IMG/VR virus record: IMGVR_UViG_3300012953_000213
Span: 1 to 24,680 of that record
Source: a virus
Lineage: Duplodnaviria; Caudoviricetes
Length of the DNA: 24,680 nt
Direction: 5' to 3' (one strand)
Shown here: piece by piece, positions 1,292 through 10,876 of the stretch
How positions within the stretch are numbered: position 1 is the first letter of the stretch
Layout of the letters: the number at the start of each line of letters is the position of its first letter
Notes under the pieces: generated by a model
Database searches by the model: none
Told to the model about the DNA's origin: nothing
What the model saw: only the letters and a program-made list of their open reading frames with translations
Position numbers and translations under genes: made by a program

Positions 1292-1705
1292 ATGGCTAAA
1301 AAACGTTTTAAAGATACAGGTGTTGGAAAATTTTTATTAGAAAAAATTCCTAATGTCGTTGGTGCAATTGCAGGTGATACTCCTGTTGGTTCAGTAATAC
1401 AAGCTATTATAGGTGGCTCTAATATGTCTGAAGAAGATAAAAAAATTGCACTTAAAAAATTAGATATTGAAAGAGCTGAAATAGATGGTACAACAAGACG
1501 CTGGGTGGCGGATGCAACTTCGGGTTCATGGCTTGCGGCAAATGTTCGTCCTTTAACTTTAGTTTTTTTAACAGTAAGCTATGTAGCCGGCTGGTATATG
1601 GGCTATCCTTTAGATTCAATAACTGGTCTTCTTACTATTGTAATTGGAGGTTATTTTGGATCGCGCGGAGTAGAAAAAGTATTTGGAAATAGTAAACATA
1701 AATAA
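1292..1705 (+). CDS. Holin-like membrane protein (3TM/GTA-type holin family-like)
   Basis: Hydrophobic segments LTLVFLTVSYVAGWYM and ITGLLTIVIGGYFG. Motifs 'WLAANVRP' and 'YFGSRGVEK' are typical of this family. Adjacent to the endolysin. Confidence 0.7.
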   Translation: MAKKRFKDTGVGKFLLEKIPNVVGAIAGDTPVGSVIQAIIGGSNMSEEDKKIALKKLDIERAEIDGTTRRWVADATSGSWLAANVRPLTLVFLTVSYVAGWYMGYPLDSITGLLTIVIGGYFGSRGVEKVFGNSKHK

Positions 1706-1708
1706 AAA

Positions 1709-1855
1709 ATGCAAGATCTTAAAATATACGGAATCTCCGTAAGCGGAATAACATTTTCTTTTCTGCCAGATATAAATCCAATGCTACAAACTGTAGTATT
1801 AGTTTTAACTATCGTTTATACTGTTATAGGTATAACACAAAAATTAAAAAAATAA
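1709..1855 (+). CDS. Small membrane protein, 48 aa (possible holin/antiholin); not in ORF track
   Basis: MQDLKIYGISVSGITFSFLPDINPMLQTVVLVLTIVYTVIGITQKLKK. It fills the gap between the holin-like gene and the endolysin, with a TM-like helix and a basic tail. Confidence 0.75.
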   Translation: MQDLKIYGISVSGITFSFLPDINPMLQTVVLVLTIVYTVIGITQKLKK

Positions 1856-1856
1856 A

Positions 1857-2201
1857 ATGAAATATTTTAATGAATCTGAATTTACTAATTTTAAAAAAAT
1901 GGACAAAAAGCTTTTAGCTATGTTAGATCATGTACGTGAGCTTTATGGACATCCTATTAAAATTACATCAAGTTATAGAAGTCCTGAACATCCAATAGAA
2001 GCAGCAAAAAAACAACCAGGGGAGCACGCTTATGGTGCCGCTGTAGATATACTTAGTGATAGTGGTGGAAAAACTTTTAGGTTAGTAAAAGCCGCAATAG
2101 AAGCAGGTTTTACTAGAATAGGTATAAGTAGAAAAAAAGGTTTTATACATTTAGGTATTGGTTATCCAGATGCTCCAGAAAAAACAATATGGACATATTA
2201 A
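1857..2201 (+). CDS. Peptidase M15 family Zn-peptidase, probable endolysin
   Basis: ITSSYRS...EHAYGAAVDI...FIHL provides the R/H/D/H pattern of M15 (Peptidase_M15_3-like) enzymes. Confidence 0.85.
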   Translation: MKYFNESEFTNFKKMDKKLLAMLDHVRELYGHPIKITSSYRSPEHPIEAAKKQPGEHAYGAAVDILSDSGGKTFRLVKAAIEAGFTRIGISRKKGFIHLGIGYPDAPEKTIWTY

Positions 2202-2433: not shown

Positions 2434-3021
2434 ATGCAATCTTTATTTAATTATATTATATCTACTAAAAGTCGTTACAATAATAAAGTTAATATTGGTA
2501 ATAAAGAATTAATAATTAATACTGAAGTTACCGAAAGAGATTATATTTTTGTTAATAGAATAGGCACTGTAGTTAATACACCAGCCTCTCTTGATACTAT
2601 AATAAAAAAAAATGATGAAGTAATTGTACATCATAATGTTTTTAGAAGATGGATTGATCAACAAGGAATTGAAAAAAATTCTAGTAGTTTTATAGAAGAA
2701 AATAAATATTTTGTAAATGAAGATCAAATTTTTGCATATAAAAGAAATAATAATTGGGAATGTTTACCTAATTTTTGTTTTGTAAAACCTTTACATGATA
2801 ATAACCAATGGAGCCTTCATTCTGACGAAAATTTAAAAGGAATACTTACGTATAGCAATAATAAGTTAAGTGAGTTAGGGGCATCCATAGGCGATATAGT
2901 GGGCTTTACACCTGATTCTGAGTATGAATTTAATATTGATGGCCAAAAACTTTATAGAATTTTATCAAATCATATAACAATTAATTATGGATCGAAGAAA
3001 AAAAATTATAGCCGCTGCTGA
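2434..3021 (+). CDS. GroES/Cpn10-like co-chaperonin, apparently two tandem domains
   Basis: 195 aa with two GroES-like halves: 'IGTVVNTP..IKKNDEVIV..YFVNEDQIFA' and 'FCFVKP..KGILTYS..IGDIVGF..EFNIDGQKLYRILSNHI'. Confidence 0.6.
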   Translation: MQSLFNYIISTKSRYNNKVNIGNKELIINTEVTERDYIFVNRIGTVVNTPASLDTIIKKNDEVIVHHNVFRRWIDQQGIEKNSSSFIEENKYFVNEDQIFAYKRNNNWECLPNFCFVKPLHDNNQWSLHSDENLKGILTYSNNKLSELGASIGDIVGFTPDSEYEFNIDGQKLYRILSNHITINYGSKKKNYSRC

Positions 3022-3232
3022 AAAAGCATTAATAGAACTTGAAAAAGTTATTAGACAAACTATAGATTTGGTTGAATTAGACCCTGAAAAAGCTAAAACA
3101 GCAGCCCAAGCAAAATGGGTTGCAATTGATGATTCTTTAAAAATTATTGAAAAAATTGAAGAACTTTCAAATGAAACTAAAAGTGATAAAGACAAAAAAA
3201 CTTTTTTAGGTGTTGAAAATCGTATTAAATAA
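2987..3232 (+). CDS. Small helical protein, candidate terminase small subunit
   Basis: 81 aa, charged and helical, translationally coupled to terL (TAATG). The assignment is positional. Confidence 0.45.
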   Translation: MDRRKKIIAAAEKALIELEKVIRQTIDLVELDPEKAKTAAQAKWVAIDDSLKIIEKIEELSNETKSDKDKKTFLGVENRIK

Positions 3233-5463
3233 TGTACAAGCAAACTTTATATAAAATTTATAATGATCATCTTTCTAACAAGAACATTATAAAACAAAAC
3301 AAAAATAAAAAATTTATTTATGGATATAATGAAGAACTTGATTGTGTTATAATAAGTAAAGACGGAACTATAGGTGAAATATATGAAATACAAGGTCTCA
3401 AGGTAGCAATACCTAAAACCCCTAAAAATATTATTGGGGAAGACCAAAAAAAATCAAATCAATATTTTAAAAAACGTTTAAGGCCAAATTCTTTAGATAA
3501 AATTAAAACAATATATGATTTTAAACATTATCCTGAAAAAGCAAAAGAAGATTATTTTGACTACATTAATGATGAGTTTAATTATCGTAGGGATGGGTAT
3601 TGGTTCATGTGCAACGGCTCCCCGTGTTACATTACAGGGTCGCACTACATTTACCTTAATTGGACGAAAATTGATATTGGTTCCCCGGACTTCAGACAAG
3701 CTAATAGAATCTTTTATTACTTCTGGGAAGCGTGTAAAGCAGACAAAAGATGTTATGGAATGTGCTACCTCAAAAATAGACGGTCTGGCTTTAGCTTCAT
3801 GGCATCATCGGAATGCGTTAACCAGGCTACAATTTCAAAAGATGCACGGTTTGGAATATTATCTAAAACAGGGGCTGATGCCAAAAAAATGTTTACCGAC
3901 AAAGTGGTACCTATCAGCATCAACTACCCATTTTTTTTCAAACCTATACAGGATGGAATGGAACGACCTAAGACAGAACTATCTTACAAGGTTCCATCGC
4001 GAAGACTTACAAGAAAGACTATTACGACTGCGGGGGATGAAGAAGGTATACCGACAGGATTGGACACCACAATCGATTGGAAGAATACAGGGGACAACTC
4101 CTATGATGGGGAGAAACTCCAATTACTCGTCCATGACGAATCCGGAAAATGGGAAAGACCGGACAACATCCTCAACAATTGGAGGGTCACAAAAACGTGT
4201 TTACGTCTCGGGTCGAAGATAGTAGGCAAATGTATGATGGGTTCAACTTCTAATGCATTAATTAAAGGAGGTGATAATTTTAAAAAATTATACTATAACT
4301 CAGATGTTACCAATAGAAATCGCAATGGCCAGACTACAAGTGGATTATATGCTTTGTTCATTCCTATGGAATGGGGATTCGAGGGGTTTATCGATAAGTA
4401 TGGGTACCCTGTCTTCGATAGCCCATCGGGAGAGATTGAAGGAATTGATGGTGAACCAATATCTACAGGAGTTATTGGACATTGGGAAAATGAAGTAGAA
4501 GGATTAAAAAAAGATAGTGATGCATTAAATGAATATTACAGACAATTTCCAAGATCTGAAAAACATGCTTTTAGAGATGAAACTTTAAATTCTTTATTCA
4601 ATTTAACTAAGATTTACGAACAAATTGATTTTAATGAAGAAATGACTATGAGCGGCTATGTGGTTCGTGGGAGTTTTTCATGGAAAAATGGAATTAAAGA
4701 TACTGAAGTATTATGGACACCAACAACTAATGGTAGATTTAGAGTTTCTTGGTTACCTCCAAATAATTTAAAAAACAATATTGTTTTAAAAAATAATTTA
4801 AAGTACCCTGGAAATGAAGGCTTAGGCGCTTTTGGATGTGATTCATATGATATATCAGGAACTGTGGGTGGAGGAGGTTCAAACGGCGCATTACACGGGC
4901 TAACTACTTTTTCAATGATTTCTGATGTGCCTAATACAAGATTTTTTTTAGAATATATTGCAAGGCCTCAAACAGCAGAAATATTTTTTGAGGATGTATT
5001 AATGGCATGTGCTTTTTATGGTATGCCTTTATTAGCAGAAAATAATAAACCTAGATTATTATATCATTTTAAAAGAAGAGGTTATAGAGGTTTTTCAATG
5101 AACCGTCCCGATAAATTAATAGGCAATTTATCAAAAACAGAAAAAGAATTAGGAGGAATACCTAATACTTCAGAAGATATTAAACAAGCCCACGCTGCTG
5201 CAATTGAATCTTATATAGAAGAATATGTTGGTAGAATGGAAGAAAACCACGGTGATATGTATTTTCAAAGAACATTAGAAGATTGGGCTAGATTTGATAT
5301 ATCCAGAAGAACATCCCATGATGCCTCTATTAGTAGTGGCTTAGCTATAATGGCATGCAGAAAACATATGTATCGTCCTAGACCTGAAAGAATAATTAAA
5401 AAACTTGATTTTAAATTTTCTAAATATACAAATAAAGGATCAAGAAGTGAGTTAATAAAATAA
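3232..5463 (+). CDS. terL: Terminase large subunit
   Basis: Walker A-like LKNRRSGFS, Walker B LLVHDESGKW and coupling motif MMGSTSN. C-terminal RNase H-like nuclease motifs FGCDSYD, LAENN and HDASISSGLA. Lies upstream of the portal. Confidence 0.92.
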   Translation: MYKQTLYKIYNDHLSNKNIIKQNKNKKFIYGYNEELDCVIISKDGTIGEIYEIQGLKVAIPKTPKNIIGEDQKKSNQYFKKRLRPNSLDKIKTIYDFKHYPEKAKEDYFDYINDEFNYRRDGYWFMCNGSPCYITGSHYIYLNWTKIDIGSPDFRQANRIFYYFWEACKADKRCYGMCYLKNRRSGFSFMASSECVNQATISKDARFGILSKTGADAKKMFTDKVVPISINYPFFFKPIQDGMERPKTELSYKVPSRRLTRKTITTAGDEEGIPTGLDTTIDWKNTGDNSYDGEKLQLLVHDESGKWERPDNILNNWRVTKTCLRLGSKIVGKCMMGSTSNALIKGGDNFKKLYYNSDVTNRNRNGQTTSGLYALFIPMEWGFEGFIDKYGYPVFDSPSGEIEGIDGEPISTGVIGHWENEVEGLKKDSDALNEYYRQFPRSEKHAFRDETLNSLFNLTKIYEQIDFNEEMTMSGYVVRGSFSWKNGIKDTEVLWTPTTNGRFRVSWLPPNNLKNNIVLKNNLKYPGNEGLGAFGCDSYDISGTVGGGGSNGALHGLTTFSMISDVPNTRFFLEYIARPQTAEIFFEDVLMACAFYGMPLLAENNKPRLLYHFKRRGYRGFSMNRPDKLIGNLSKTEKELGGIPNTSEDIKQAHAAAIESYIEEYVGRMEENHGDMYFQRTLEDWARFDISRRTSHDASISSGLAIMACRKHMYRPRPERIIKKLDFKFSKYTNKGSRSELIK
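3515..4222 (+). CDS. Candidate overprinted (+1 frame) lipoprotein nested in terL
   Basis: 235 open codons in a frame normally closed by TTA/ATA/GTA codons. N-terminus KKQKK-IILTTLMMSLIIVGMG-IGSC (Cys32 at 3608-3610) resembles a signal peptidase II signal. Coincides with a GC/rare-codon island. Confidence 0.55.
   Translation: MILNIILKKQKKIILTTLMMSLIIVGMGIGSCATAPRVTLQGRTTFTLIGRKLILVPRTSDKLIESFITSGKRVKQTKDVMECATSKIDGLALASWHHRNALTRLQFQKMHGLEYYLKQGLMPKKCLPTKWYLSASTTHFFSNLYRMEWNDLRQNYLTRFHREDLQERLLRLRGMKKVYRQDWTPQSIGRIQGTTPMMGRNSNYSSMTNPENGKDRTTSSTIGGSQKRVYVSGRR
4271..4498 (+). CDS. Second candidate overprinted (+1 frame) ORF in terL; true start may be ATG 4304 or 4325
   Basis: Same frame as 3515..4222. 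Overlaps a second GC-rich patch (4381-4440 = 29/60 GC vs 4261-4320 = 13/60, hand count). Confidence 0.35.
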   Translation: MIILKNYTITQMLPIEIAMARLQVDYMLCSFLWNGDSRGLSISMGTLSSIAHRERLKELMVNQYLQELLDIGKMK

Positions 5464-7940: not shown

Positions 7941-9251
7941 ATGGAAAACGAAGTACAAGAAAATGTAGAAGTTAAAGCAGTTGAAGAAACACCTTCTGAT
8001 GCTTTACCTCAAAATAAAGAAGCTGCTGTGCTTGAAAAAGCTGTAGAAGCAGGCGATGTAAAGCCAGAATATGGTTTACAAGATGATGGAGTCTATAAAA
8101 TAAATGTAGATAACCCACCACCGCCTAAAAAAGAAATTAAAGAAGAACCCAAAAAAGAAAAAGAAAATGCCGTTCAAAAATCAGAGCCAAAGGAAAGCGT
8201 GTTACGCGATGAACGACCCGAAGTGGGATTGCAAGAAGTGGGATCAGAAGTACGGGACGAATCCAACAAAGAAAATCTTACAGAGGAAAAACAAGCCCCT
8301 ATAGAGAAGGAAAAAACAGATTCACCATTAGAATTAATTATTGAAGAAGATAATAAAGCTGATGTCCCTAAAGAAATTAAAGAAGCACCTGCTGATTTAA
8401 AACCTAAGAAAGAATTACAGGAAGAAAAAATACCAGAACTTCCTGAAGGGGTAAATAAACTTATGAAATTTATAGAAGAAACAGGTGGAACTGTTGAAGA
8501 CTATGCTAAGTTAAATAAAGATTATTCTAAAATGGATAATTTAGTTTTACTTCGTGAATATTATGAGTTTACCAAACCTCATTTAGACAAAGAAGACATT
8601 AATTTTTTAATGGATAAAAACTTTGCCTATGATAAAGAATTAGACGATCCGTCTGATATAAAAGCTAAGCAATTAGCTTTTAAAGAAGAGTTATATAATG
8701 CTCAAAATGCATTAAATGGTGCTAAAGAAAAATATTATACTGATCTTAAGTTAAGAAAAAAGAATGATATTCCTAAAGAGTACCAAGAAGCATTAGTGTA
8801 TTATAATAAAACTCAGCAATTACTCAAAGAAGAAGCTCAAGTAGCGGATAATTTTTTAGAACAAACGAAAAATGTTTTTAACAATGATTTCAAAGGTTTT
8901 GATTTTAAGGTTGGAGAAAGCAAATATCGTGTTAAAATAGATAACACTAAAAAAATCCAAGAGTTTCAATCAGATATTAATAATTTCTTAAATCAATTTG
9001 TAGACGATAAAGGAGTTACTGATGCTAGAAAATACCATAAAGCTTTATACACCGCGCAAAATGCGGATAAAATAGCAAATCATTTTTACGAGCAAGGCCG
9101 TGCCGACGCTATAAAAGAATCTGCTAAAAAAGCTAAAAATATAAATATGGATCCAAGATCAGATGCCTCTTCTGTTGTTACAAAATCTGGTGATACGATA
9201 AGAGTTATATCTGGAGATTCTTCTGATAAATTGCGAATTAAATGGAAATAA
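7941..9251 (+). CDS. Putative capsid scaffolding protein
   Basis: Acidic, Glu/Lys/Pro-rich disordered N-half and helical C-half, located between portal and major capsid. Confidence 0.65.
   Translation: MENEVQENVEVKAVEETPSDALPQNKEAAVLEKAVEAGDVKPEYGLQDDGVYKINVDNPPPPKKEIKEEPKKEKENAVQKSEPKESVLRDERPEVGLQEVGSEVRDESNKENLTEEKQAPIEKEKTDSPLELIIEEDNKADVPKEIKEAPADLKPKKELQEEKIPELPEGVNKLMKFIEETGGTVEDYAKLNKDYSKMDNLVLLREYYEFTKPHLDKEDINFLMDKNFAYDKELDDPSDIKAKQLAFKEELYNAQNALNGAKEKYYTDLKLRKKNDIPKEYQEALVYYNKTQQLLKEEAQVADNFLEQTKNVFNNDFKGFDFKVGESKYRVKIDNTKKIQEFQSDINNFLNQFVDDKGVTDARKYHKALYTAQNADKIANHFYEQGRADAIKESAKKAKNINMDPRSDASSVVTKSGDTIRVISGDSSDKLRIKWK
8167..8304 (+). CDS. Overprinted (+1 frame) 45-aa basic protein nested in the scaffold gene; not in ORF track
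   Basis: MPFKNQSQRKACYAMNDPKWDCKKWDQKYGTNPTKKILQRKNKPL-TAG, with an A-rich leader. Coincides with rare codons in the scaffold frame. Resembles small phage proteins beginning MPFKS..Q. Confidence 0.7.
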   Translation: MPFKNQSQRKACYAMNDPKWDCKKWDQKYGTNPTKKILQRKNKPL

Positions 9252-9277: not shown

Positions 9278-10876
9278 ATGGCTTTTACTGGTGGCGTACC
9301 CGCCGCTTTACAACCGACCCAGACTAAAACACTTTATGCTGGGAACTATATTGACTTTACAGCCACAGGCTTTAGTCAATGGACACAACAATTTTTACCC
9401 GACGTATACGAAAAAGAAGTTGAAAGATATGGAAACAGATCAATCGGTTCTTTTCTTCGTATGGTATCTGCGGAGATGCCTTCTACATCAGATCAAATAA
9501 TTTGGACTGAGCAAGGAAGGTTACATACTAGATATGCAAACTGTTTACCTCAAGGAAATGCTGGTGCTATGCCTGCTGCAGGAGCTCAAGCTGCAATTGC
9601 TGCTGCTGGTGCTGCTGGTGGAGTACTTAACTTTAACGTACCTGCTGCAACACAACCTGCAAGCTTAGGTGTAAGTCCTACTACTCAAACATCACAAGTT
9701 AACTTCAGAGTTGGCCAAACTATTATGGTCCAAATTCAAACTAGTGCTACTTCAGCGGTTGGTGATCCAACTAAAGCTGTTATAAAAGGAGTTTGTACTG
9801 CTGTTGGAGTTGGTGGAGGTGCTACTGGTGGTGGACAACAATTTCAAATGCAAGCATATGCTGCTCATGGAGGAGTATTAGCTGCTGAAAGAGTTACTGC
9901 TATTGCATACGGTTCTGAATTTGCTAAAGGTACTGGAAACTTTACTGAAAGCTTAGATCCAGGATATGCTACTTTTACAACTTCTCCTTTAATTTTAAAA
10001 GAAAACTATCAAATCAATGGTTCTGACACTGCTCAGATTGGTTGGATTGAAGTTACTTCTGAAAATGGAGCTGGTGGTTATTTATGGTACATTAAATCAG
10101 AGCATGAAAATAGACTTCGATGGGAAGACTACATGGAAATGGCTATGATTGAAGGTGTTAAAAAAGTAGCCGGTGGTGCTGCTATTCCTCTTGGAACTTA
10201 TGGAGGAAGTTTAGCTGCTCAAAATGCTAGAGGTACTGAAGGTTTCTTTGAAGCTTTAGAATCTCGTGGAAATGTTTATTCAGGATTTGGTGGACAAGCT
10301 GCTGCTCAAGCTGGTGGTGGTGCGTTAACTGATTTTGATAACGTTCTTAAACAATTAGACAAGCAAGGATCAATTGAAGAAAATATGCTATTTTTAAATA
10401 GAGAACTTTCTTTAGAAATTGATGACATACTTGCAATGCAAAATGGTAATTATGCTGGTGCAGCTGGATATGCTCACGGTACATCTTATGGTGTATTCAA
10501 TAACAGCTCTGATATGGCTCTTAATTTAGGATTTACTGGTTACAGAAGAGGTTCTTATGACTTCTACAAAACTGACTGGAAATACTTAAATGATTGGTCA
10601 ACAAGAGGTGGTTTTGGAGGTGTCGAAGGTGTATTAGTACCTGCTGGAACTTCTACTGTTTATGACCAACAATTAGGTCAAAACATTAAAAGACCATTTT
10701 TACATATTCGCTATAGAGCTTCAGAAACAGAGAACAGAAAAAACAAATCTTGGATTACAGGATCTGTTGGAACTGGTGCTCCTACTTCTGATATTGATGA
10801 AATGAAAATCAATTACTTAAGTGAAAGATGTCTTGTTACACAAGCTGCTAATAATTTTGTATTATTTAAAGCTTAA
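9278..10876 (+). CDS. Major capsid protein
   Basis: 532 aa after the scaffold, with high-expression codon bias and followed by a strong terminator. Segments 'QQFLPDVYEKEVERYGNR', 'WTEQGRLH' and 'YLSERCL' fit crAss-like/flavobacterial podophage capsid proteins. Confidence 0.85.
   Translation: MAFTGGVPAALQPTQTKTLYAGNYIDFTATGFSQWTQQFLPDVYEKEVERYGNRSIGSFLRMVSAEMPSTSDQIIWTEQGRLHTRYANCLPQGNAGAMPAAGAQAAIAAAGAAGGVLNFNVPAATQPASLGVSPTTQTSQVNFRVGQTIMVQIQTSATSAVGDPTKAVIKGVCTAVGVGGGATGGGQQFQMQAYAAHGGVLAAERVTAIAYGSEFAKGTGNFTESLDPGYATFTTSPLILKENYQINGSDTAQIGWIEVTSENGAGGYLWYIKSEHENRLRWEDYMEMAMIEGVKKVAGGAAIPLGTYGGSLAAQNARGTEGFFEALESRGNVYSGFGGQAAAQAGGGALTDFDNVLKQLDKQGSIEENMLFLNRELSLEIDDILAMQNGNYAGAAGYAHGTSYGVFNNSSDMALNLGFTGYRRGSYDFYKTDWKYLNDWSTRGGFGGVEGVLVPAGTSTVYDQQLGQNIKRPFLHIRYRASETENRKNKSWITGSVGTGAPTSDIDEMKINYLSERCLVTQAANNFVLFKA

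Follow-up and report, generated by a model that had tools for sequence, protein, structure and literature searches.

Phage T5 makes, early in infection, a small receptor-specific lipoprotein of the envelope or outer membrane, Llp. In phage T7, the hypothetical genes 19.2 and 19.3 both lie in the +1 frame of gene 19, which encodes the terminase large subunit (terL; NC_001604 coordinates), so that overprinting in terL has a precedent; a literature search found no paper on gp19.2 or gp19.3. The outer-membrane spanin (o-spanin) gene Rz1 of phage lambda is a +1 nested lipoprotein gene with an unstructured, Pro-rich mature part (PMC6139136). Unimolecular spanins (u-spanins), such as gp11 of T1, have an N-terminal lipoprotein signal. 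They have been annotated in flavobacterial phages (PMC8776804), are the only spanins reported for Bacteroidetes phages in the passages of PMC12596118 on this subject, and had no periplasmic Cys in a set of 58 (PMC6139136). The disruptin gp28 of phiKT, a 56-amino acid (aa) amphipathic helical peptide with no localisation signal, is a cationic non-spanin candidate for outer-membrane disruption (10.1101/515445). How spanin-less phages break the outer membrane is described as an open question (PMC6139136). Here we describe ORF1, an open reading frame (ORF) nested in the terL gene of a Caudoviricetes virus (IMG/VR record IMGVR_UViG_3300012953_000213, positions 1 to 24,680; the whole 24,680-base stretch is hereafter the window). 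Comparison with homologous sequences indicates that both ORF1 and a second nested frame, ORF2, are very probably genuine genes that arose by overprinting.

The +1 frame of terL in the window and its relatives

The window carried a holin, an M15 endolysin, a GroES-like gene, terL, a portal and virion genes, and represents a phage lysis and head-gene region. The nearest cultured relatives of its terL were found in Flavobacterium elemo phages (45% identity), Maribacter phage Panino (41%) and Cellulophaga phages (35–38%), pointing to a flavobacterial host. A PDB sequence search with the terL alignment gave no matches. Two stretches of terL, which we take to be a Walker A-like motif (at 3772) and a Walker B-like motif (at 4126), both lie under ORF1.

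3232..5463, + strand: terL, terminase large subunit, 743 aa (phrog_6681, E 2.7e-170)
3515..4222, + strand: ORF1, 235 aa, ATG start, TAG stop, in the +1 frame of terL codons 95–330

The original prediction had proposed an overprinted lipoprotein-like gene here on the strength of 235 open +1 codons, a count that was exact; the frame is without stops for 241 codons. Recoding terL by the codon usage of the window gave a mean of 11.7 stops in this frame and a minimum of 4 (5000 runs), and shuffling the synonymous codons of the ORF1 region itself left it free of stops in 1 of 5000 cases. The openness of ORF1 is far beyond chance. Elsewhere in the window genes the longest +1 run was 116 codons, in the Gly-rich first gene. 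The predicted GC island was also found as described, with 27/60 and 28/60 at 4081–4200 versus 11/60 at 3241–3300 and 13/60 at 4561–4620, as was the preference for CTC/ATC/GTC-type codons (5/5/2 in the ORF1 region versus 0/0/0 in the 3' part of terL; TTA 3 versus 22). TTA, ATA and GTA, which according to the original prediction normally close the frame quickly, were not banned from the region; they occurred in front of a C or T, so that no +1 stop arises.

The terL loci were collected from IMG/VR scans and six GenBank records. Frameshifts led to the removal of two; 336 distinct sequences were left from 391, and the 304 near-full ones were analysed: 60 in clade A (window included), 149 in clade B and 95 others. 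All 60 members of clade A had the +1 frame open past codon 224, and 59 had it open to codon 281 or beyond, the first stop being at terL codon 225 (1), 281 (4), 296 (10), 314 (6), 326 (1) or 330–331 (38). Clade B was open to codon 250 or beyond in 105/149, had a stop at 225–230 in four and was closed before codon 200 in 40. None of the 95 other terL were open, all being shut by codon 180. After thinning to <90% identity, the 27 clade A sequences had one stop at codons 128–258 versus 142.6 expected, and 621 versus 651 outside the overlap; the 54 clade C sequences had 298 versus 384 expected. The clade A count is not circular, because this clade was defined by the tree, whereas the count for open clade B members is. 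An alternative frame kept open across diverged homologues, with a distribution narrower than that of its host gene, is the pattern of an overprinted gene.

Clade A was monophyletic on both the ORF segment (support 0.989) and the 3' segment (0.999); on codons 425–743 the SH-like approximate likelihood ratio test gave 99 (10 members). The G + C content at third codon positions (GC3) of codons 300–329 was 0.64 in the 39 clade A members in which ORF1 reaches them and 0.29 in the 15 with a shorter ORF1, and in clade B 0.55 and 0.24, respectively. Because GC3 tracks the length of ORF1 and clade A is monophyletic, the GC island is a consequence of the overprinted frame, not an import; an imported island was ruled out by the concordant segment trees together with this tracking. 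The original prediction had named frequent +1 stops in homologues and recombination with a discordant tree as findings that would speak against it. Neither was seen, the close homologues being without +1 stops. The grouping of clades A and B was supported on the full terL protein (0.976) and was not resolved outside the overlap, so that ORF1 may have had one origin or two. Within clade B, gain and loss of ORF1 took 21 parsimony changes, at least three of them required by strongly supported branches.

The start contexts of ORF1 resembled those of true gene starts in their scores; the start in the window scored 8.3, compared with a median of 5.45 for true starts and a 90th percentile of 4.65 for control +1 ATGs. 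Near-identical short contigs covering ORF1 and ORF2 were present at low depth in two seawater RNA libraries, with strand and frame undeterminable from the contigs. A sigma-70 promoter scan gave 18 sites versus 22.9 expected. From the comparative evidence, ORF1 is in all likelihood translated from the terL message. It had no Pfam or PHROG match, NCBIfam gave one weak match in 1 of 50 ORF1 members, and the ESM Atlas had no usable match for ORF1 or ORF2. A search for ORF1 homologues gave 19 matches (lengths of 129–412 aa searched); the eight inspected included no stand-alone one, all being +1 terL products or frame chimeras.

Leader and mature part of ORF1

The basic n-region, the h-region (residues 14–31, mean Kyte-Doolittle hydropathy 1.95) and the IGS-C32 of the original prediction are present as described, and so is the absence of a C-terminal transmembrane (TM) segment, the best 19-residue window reaching 0.59.

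3515..3607, + strand: ORF1 leader with basic n-region, uncharged h-region and IGS (hydropathy and start-context scores)
3608..3610, + strand: Cys32, predicted lipid attachment site, encoded over terL Met126-Cys127, a clade-specific substitution
3608..4219, + strand: mature part of ORF1, 204 aa with a net charge of +22; hydrophilic and without TM, predicted to be disordered (composition, model)

In an AT-rich gene the +1 frame encodes hydrophobic residues by default, and the leader was therefore judged against synonymous recodings. The clade A h-region (codons 112–125) had a hydropathy of 2.06 versus 1.13 expected, higher than expected in 32/32 representatives, and 0.28 charged residues versus 1.84. 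In clade B the h-region was found at codons 129–141 (2.46 versus 1.36, 20/20), so that the register of the leader differs between the clades; clade C showed neither shift at those positions. A basic n-region followed by an uncharged h-region is the arrangement of a Sec/signal peptidase II leader, and an ATG lies at least 10 codons before the Cys in 69/69 clade A members tested.

Cys was found at terL position 127 in 60/60 clade A members, where 148/149 of clade B and 92/95 of the others have Asn. By itself Cys32 is weak evidence, since the Asn127Cys change in terL also removes a +1 stop. The residue before it is a free choice for terL, and in clade A Ser was found there at 87% versus 11% expected (Ser 50/60, Leu 10/60; mainly Thr in clade B). 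The IGSC of the window agrees with the lipobox [LVI][ASTVI][GAS]C at -3, -1 and +1 and departs from it at -2; deviant lipoboxes are known (PMC6139136; for lipoprotein processing see PMC11784454). In clade B, Cys142 requires a rare terL Leu codon and was kept in 98/105 open versus 13/44 closed members.

The 10 clade A members with Leu at -1 all had A/V-x-A and then Gln shortly after the Cys, and two more had both forms. For Bacteroidetes, a Q-rule has been described for signal peptidase I sites (PMC5837995), and this sub-lineage appears to have swapped its lipobox for such a site, in one event rather than ten given its single origin on the segment tree. As regards the codon alignment of terL homologues, which the original prediction had proposed as a check, the frame is open in clade A and the uncharged h-region kept, the lipobox Ser is missing in 10/60 of clade A, and the mature part is without sequence constraint. 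Since the leader register differs by clade and one sub-lineage appears to swap the lipobox, export rather than lipidation would be what is conserved. We regard Sec export of ORF1 as very likely from its leader, and lipidation by Lgt/LspA in this genome as somewhat favoured.

In the mature part, the fraction of Phe, Ile, Leu, Met and Val was 0.26 versus 0.45 expected, Pro was 0.058 versus 0.013, and Ser/Thr and Arg/Gly were enriched. Wobble divergence in 14 close pairs was 1.16 and 1.03 times the control in mature ORF1 and 1.20 in the leader. By these measures selection on the mature part concerns its composition and not its sequence. Over the whole of ORF1, selection was detected for the avoidance of stops, for an h-region free of charge, for a small residue preceding the Cys and for a hydrophilic mature part. 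An AlphaFold2 model was confident for the leader helix alone (201/235 residues with a predicted local distance difference test score, pLDDT, <50); disorder is typical of overprinted proteins (PMC8227390). The best 19-aa hydropathy in the last 45 aa had a median of -0.49 in clade A and -0.22 in clade B, with a maximum of 0.76.

ORF2 and further nested frames

Two features beyond those of the original prediction were recognized, a 48-aa hydrophobic ORF after the holin (see below) and a constrained +1 frame at about 4304–4498, ORF2.

4304..4498, + strand: ORF2, 64 aa from ATG 4304, in the +1 frame of terL, predicted helical hairpin, no signal peptide (stop count, wobble, model)

Alternative starts in the window are GTG 4271, ATA 4295 and ATG 4325; relatives prefer an ATG at codon 355, where the window has ATA. 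Codons 361–420 were free of +1 stops in 81/81 of the first homologues, and ORF2 had 0 stops versus 45 expected in clade A and 94 versus 92.5 in clade C. Its wobble divergence was 0.48 of the control, a stronger constraint than on ORF1, and a conserved Cys (4355) was found in 60/60 clade A members versus 6% expected. At one site the terL Ser alternates between TCT, AGT and AGC, and the +1 residue is restricted to Leu, Val or Ala; this suggests that the constraint is on a protein and not on a DNA motif. RNA structure or a repeated DNA motif was rejected as an explanation, with mean folding z-scores of -1.1 to +0.9 and no Rfam match. The DNA motif of ORF2 occurs once per genome, in terL, with one looser match elsewhere in a single relative (G004).

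ORF2 was open in 41/44 clade B members with ORF1 lost or shortened, under weaker constraint; its persistence there argues that the two frames are independent. A single read-through product was rejected, as the two are separated by TAG, TAG, TGA and TAA, of which one is imposed by a terL Met-Met. A programmed shift from terL into ORF2 at an A-run near 4280 is possible, since 14/93 clade B members with the ORF2 Cys have no ATG, but the A-run is also in keeping with the start context of the codon-355 ATG. The AlphaFold2 model was a helical hairpin (mean pLDDT 69) for which Foldseek found nothing at E <= 0.001. No Pfam or PHROG match was obtained for a 75-aa form, nor a PHROGs match for the 64-aa form, and none of 38 matches inspected was a clear stand-alone ORF2, these being +1 terL products, indel-type frame chimeras and unrelated repeats. 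ORF2 is neutral (7 K/R, 7 D/E), has no TM and is likely a separate small helical protein of the cytoplasm.

Other +1 frames were seen in the window and in relatives.

8167-8304, + strand: 45-aa very basic +1 frame inside a scaffold-like gene (7941-9251)
9291-9500, + strand: 69-aa ORF with GTG start, +1 to the start of the capsid gene
L247:9135-16992, - strand, and homologues in G002, G005, G012 and G054: +1 runs of 107–145 codons in ribonucleotide reductase (RNR) beta, RNR alpha, primase-helicase and thymidylate synthase (thyA)

A frame with the MPF/MPI/MPY-type motif of the first was the longest +1 run in 12/16 clade A, 25/37 open clade B and 0/29 clade C loci, although the host region is poorly conserved; the first is probably a third nested gene in the window. 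At the capsid start, three relatives (G001–G003) had a 91-codon +1 run with weak shuffle support (2–16 of 60). The runs in RNR, primase-helicase and thyA lie at matching positions in clade A genomes, several with hydrophobic segments (own-gene shuffles 0 to 16 of 2500, the genomes being non-independent).

Possible function and comparison with known systems

ORF1 lies on the same strand as the holin and endolysin, 1.3 kb downstream of them.

1292..1705, + strand: holin (phrog_3427, E 1.2e-13)
1709..1855, + strand: hydrophobic ORF of 48 aa that separates holin from endolysin and falls below the cutoff of the ORF list; family in 35 clade A loci
1857..2201, + strand: M15 peptidase endolysin (PF08291, E 1.5e-12; phrog_894)
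2987-3232, + strand: 81-aa gene immediately 5' of terL, kept at 155 clade A, B and C loci, no family match

The 48-aa ORF had no Pfam match and is possibly a second holin or an antiholin; the 81-aa gene is possibly the small terminase subunit, by position. The scan of the window's own genome was a scan of the 24,680 bases only. It gave no inner-membrane spanin (i-spanin) candidate with N-terminal TM and coiled coil, nor was one common to the open-frame contigs, and ORF2, which is without TM and persists in the absence of ORF1, is no candidate either. Two near-complete clade A genomes had no spanin-like gene. ORF1 itself has, like an o-spanin, a Pro-rich periplasmic part that is predicted to be unstructured. 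It fails as a u-spanin (no C-terminal TM, no strands in the low-confidence model, two further Cys) and as a disruptin (235 aa with a leader); the neutral ORF2 fails as a disruptin too.

We prefer, at a probability of roughly 0.38, to read ORF1 as a de novo exported protein that is a non-spanin lysis accessory, by analogy with Rz1 and gp28 and because of its late-region position and export. The +1 frame of terL is kept open by selection, and the product would be Sec-exported, probably as a lipoprotein in the window genome. After holin and endolysin have acted, the long, basic chain, predicted to be disordered, would bind anionic lipids or lipopolysaccharide and, as a tether or polycation, assist outer-membrane failure by a non-spanin route. 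More doubtful is the broader proposal that ORF1 represents a third route of outer-membrane disruption, a TM-less, disordered, exported de novo polymer with a targeting signal that moved and switched type, in a phage group that writes a +1 accessory layer into its core genes.

Several observations weigh against a role in lysis. ORF1 is outside the lysis cassette. IGSC is off consensus at -2, and Thr takes the -1 position in clade B. Mature parts vary in length between about 83 and 207 aa, K+R is 0.174 versus 0.148 expected with D+E unchanged, so that the positive charge is mostly a default of the +1 frame, and one clade B ORF1 member has a net charge of 0. The frame is closed before codon 200 in 40/149 of clade B, and just 1/10 such contigs (38–86% complete) had a u-spanin-like gene. 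The original prediction had pointed to the absence of an obvious spanin from the lysis cassette. None was found in the window, but this is weak evidence because 7/7 near-complete closed-frame genomes scanned were also without one.

Unannotated u-spanin-like genes, with a lipoprotein signal as well as a C-terminal TM, were found in closed-frame relatives (L162:404-865, L164:427-912, L084:1634-2002, L273:4844-5308). They include gp091 of the cultured Cellulophaga phage phi46:3; the L162 protein matches phrog_5885 (function not assigned). One clade B member with ORF1 lost carries such a stand-alone gene. The family was present in 0/17 open-frame versus 6/20 closed-frame records, counting the query's own, and in 0/34 further records, 0/8 more closed clade B contigs and 0/7 near-complete closed genomes. 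A replacement of the u-spanin by ORF1 is therefore not established, the association being weak and phylogenetically confounded and most closed genomes lacking the gene. In 2/5 clade A contigs we also observed a stand-alone lipoprotein of 68–70 aa (L255:9037-9249, - strand; L251:12389-12595, + strand), in the neighbourhood of a coiled-coil protein with 2 TM and of a series of small ORFs, very rich in Lys/Arg, upstream of GroEL.

Alternatively, ORF1 could be an exported protector, acting by superinfection exclusion, receptor masking or periplasmic jamming of incoming phage DNA or ejection proteins. The lipoprotein leader, the repeated gain and loss in clade B, which fits host-interaction genes, and the exclusion role of T5 Llp at the outer membrane speak for this. 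We consider it unlikely, given that Llp is made soon after infection and binds one receptor, whereas ORF1 lies within a packaging gene and is predicted to be disordered, with no fold or conserved binding surface seen. The original prediction of a hidden lysis or exclusion lipoprotein was supported as far as an overprinted gene with a probably lipidated, exported product is concerned, and not in its spanin reading.

Improbable, in our judgement, is a periplasmic regulator of lysis timing, for example antiholin-like, with the holin or the 48-aa membrane protein as its target. Two small membrane proteins do precede the endolysin and export seems conserved where lipidation is not, but a specific partner should constrain the sequence, and no constraint was seen. 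Equally low is the chance that translation of the +1 frame is itself what matters, for mRNA protection or for tuning TerL and ORF2 levels, the product being harmless filler exported for disposal. The mature region does evolve at a neutral wobble rate, the stop ranges from terL codon 225 to 331, and selection is chiefly for solubility; on the other hand, an h-region under selection, accompanied by a Cys or A-x-A-Q site and found in two registers, would be costly for a by-product, and ORF2 persists after the loss of ORF1.

A classical o-spanin, with its i-spanin elsewhere in the genome and possibly overprinted, is very unlikely. ORF1 is +1 nested and, like Rz1, Pro/Ser-rich, being probably a lipoprotein and predicted to be unstructured, relatives have other hydrophobic +1 frames, and Cys83 and Cys126 (predicted periplasmic) are invariant. 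Yet Met-Cys and Met-Phe in terL force the two Cys, and no protein with a single N-terminal TM and a coiled coil is common to the open-frame genomes. The C-terminus, which in lambda binds the partner, is variable and dispensable here, the lipid anchor is apparently lost in 10/60, and the passages of PMC12596118 report no spanins other than u-spanins from Bacteroidetes phages. That there is no second gene is scarcely credible: although an AT-rich gene by default yields hydrophobic and basic residues in its +1 frame, and terL Met-Cys forces a +1 Cys, a chance opening or an imported GC-richer segment disagrees with the monophyly of clade A on both segments, the GC3 that follows ORF1 extent, the single open shuffle in 5000 and the closed frames of the GC-richer clade C genes.

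Gene birth by overprinting is seen here in an unusually clean natural example, on a phage enzyme that is highly conserved. Its steps can be followed directly, because there are outgroups without the gene, loss lineages and lineages with a moved or changed leader. Thousands of IMG/VR stretches match the terL patterns and gene callers discard such frames, so that the annotation of an abundant group of phages is incomplete. Should ORF1 have a role in lysis, it would bear on how the outer membrane is broken by phages of Gram-negative hosts that seem to have no spanin. In the literature covered (mostly open-access text), no long exported terL-nested product with a mobile leader was encountered, and the passages of PMC6139136 on spanins make no mention of the terminase.

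Compared with the systems introduced above, ORF1 and ORF2 resemble T7 genes 19.2 and 19.3 in being nested in terL; the T7 products, of 85 and 57 aa, are far shorter than ORF1 and show no obvious export leader by eye. ORF1 shares with Llp the character of a phage envelope lipoprotein, unlike it in lying within a packaging gene and in having no conserved fold. It shares with u-spanins the N-terminal lipoprotein signal, and its length is similar to that of the u-spanin-like genes of closed-frame relatives (153–161 aa), but a C-terminal TM and predicted beta structure are absent from it, and its periplasmic part contains Cys. Compared with gp28, which ORF2 approaches in size but not in charge, ORF1 is predicted to be exported and disordered and is four times longer. 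From Rz1, the closest in design, it differs in its host gene, an unrelated ATPase rather than an i-spanin, in a mature part of 204 aa versus 40, in its variable C-terminus with no partner found, and in a lipobox that is not universal.

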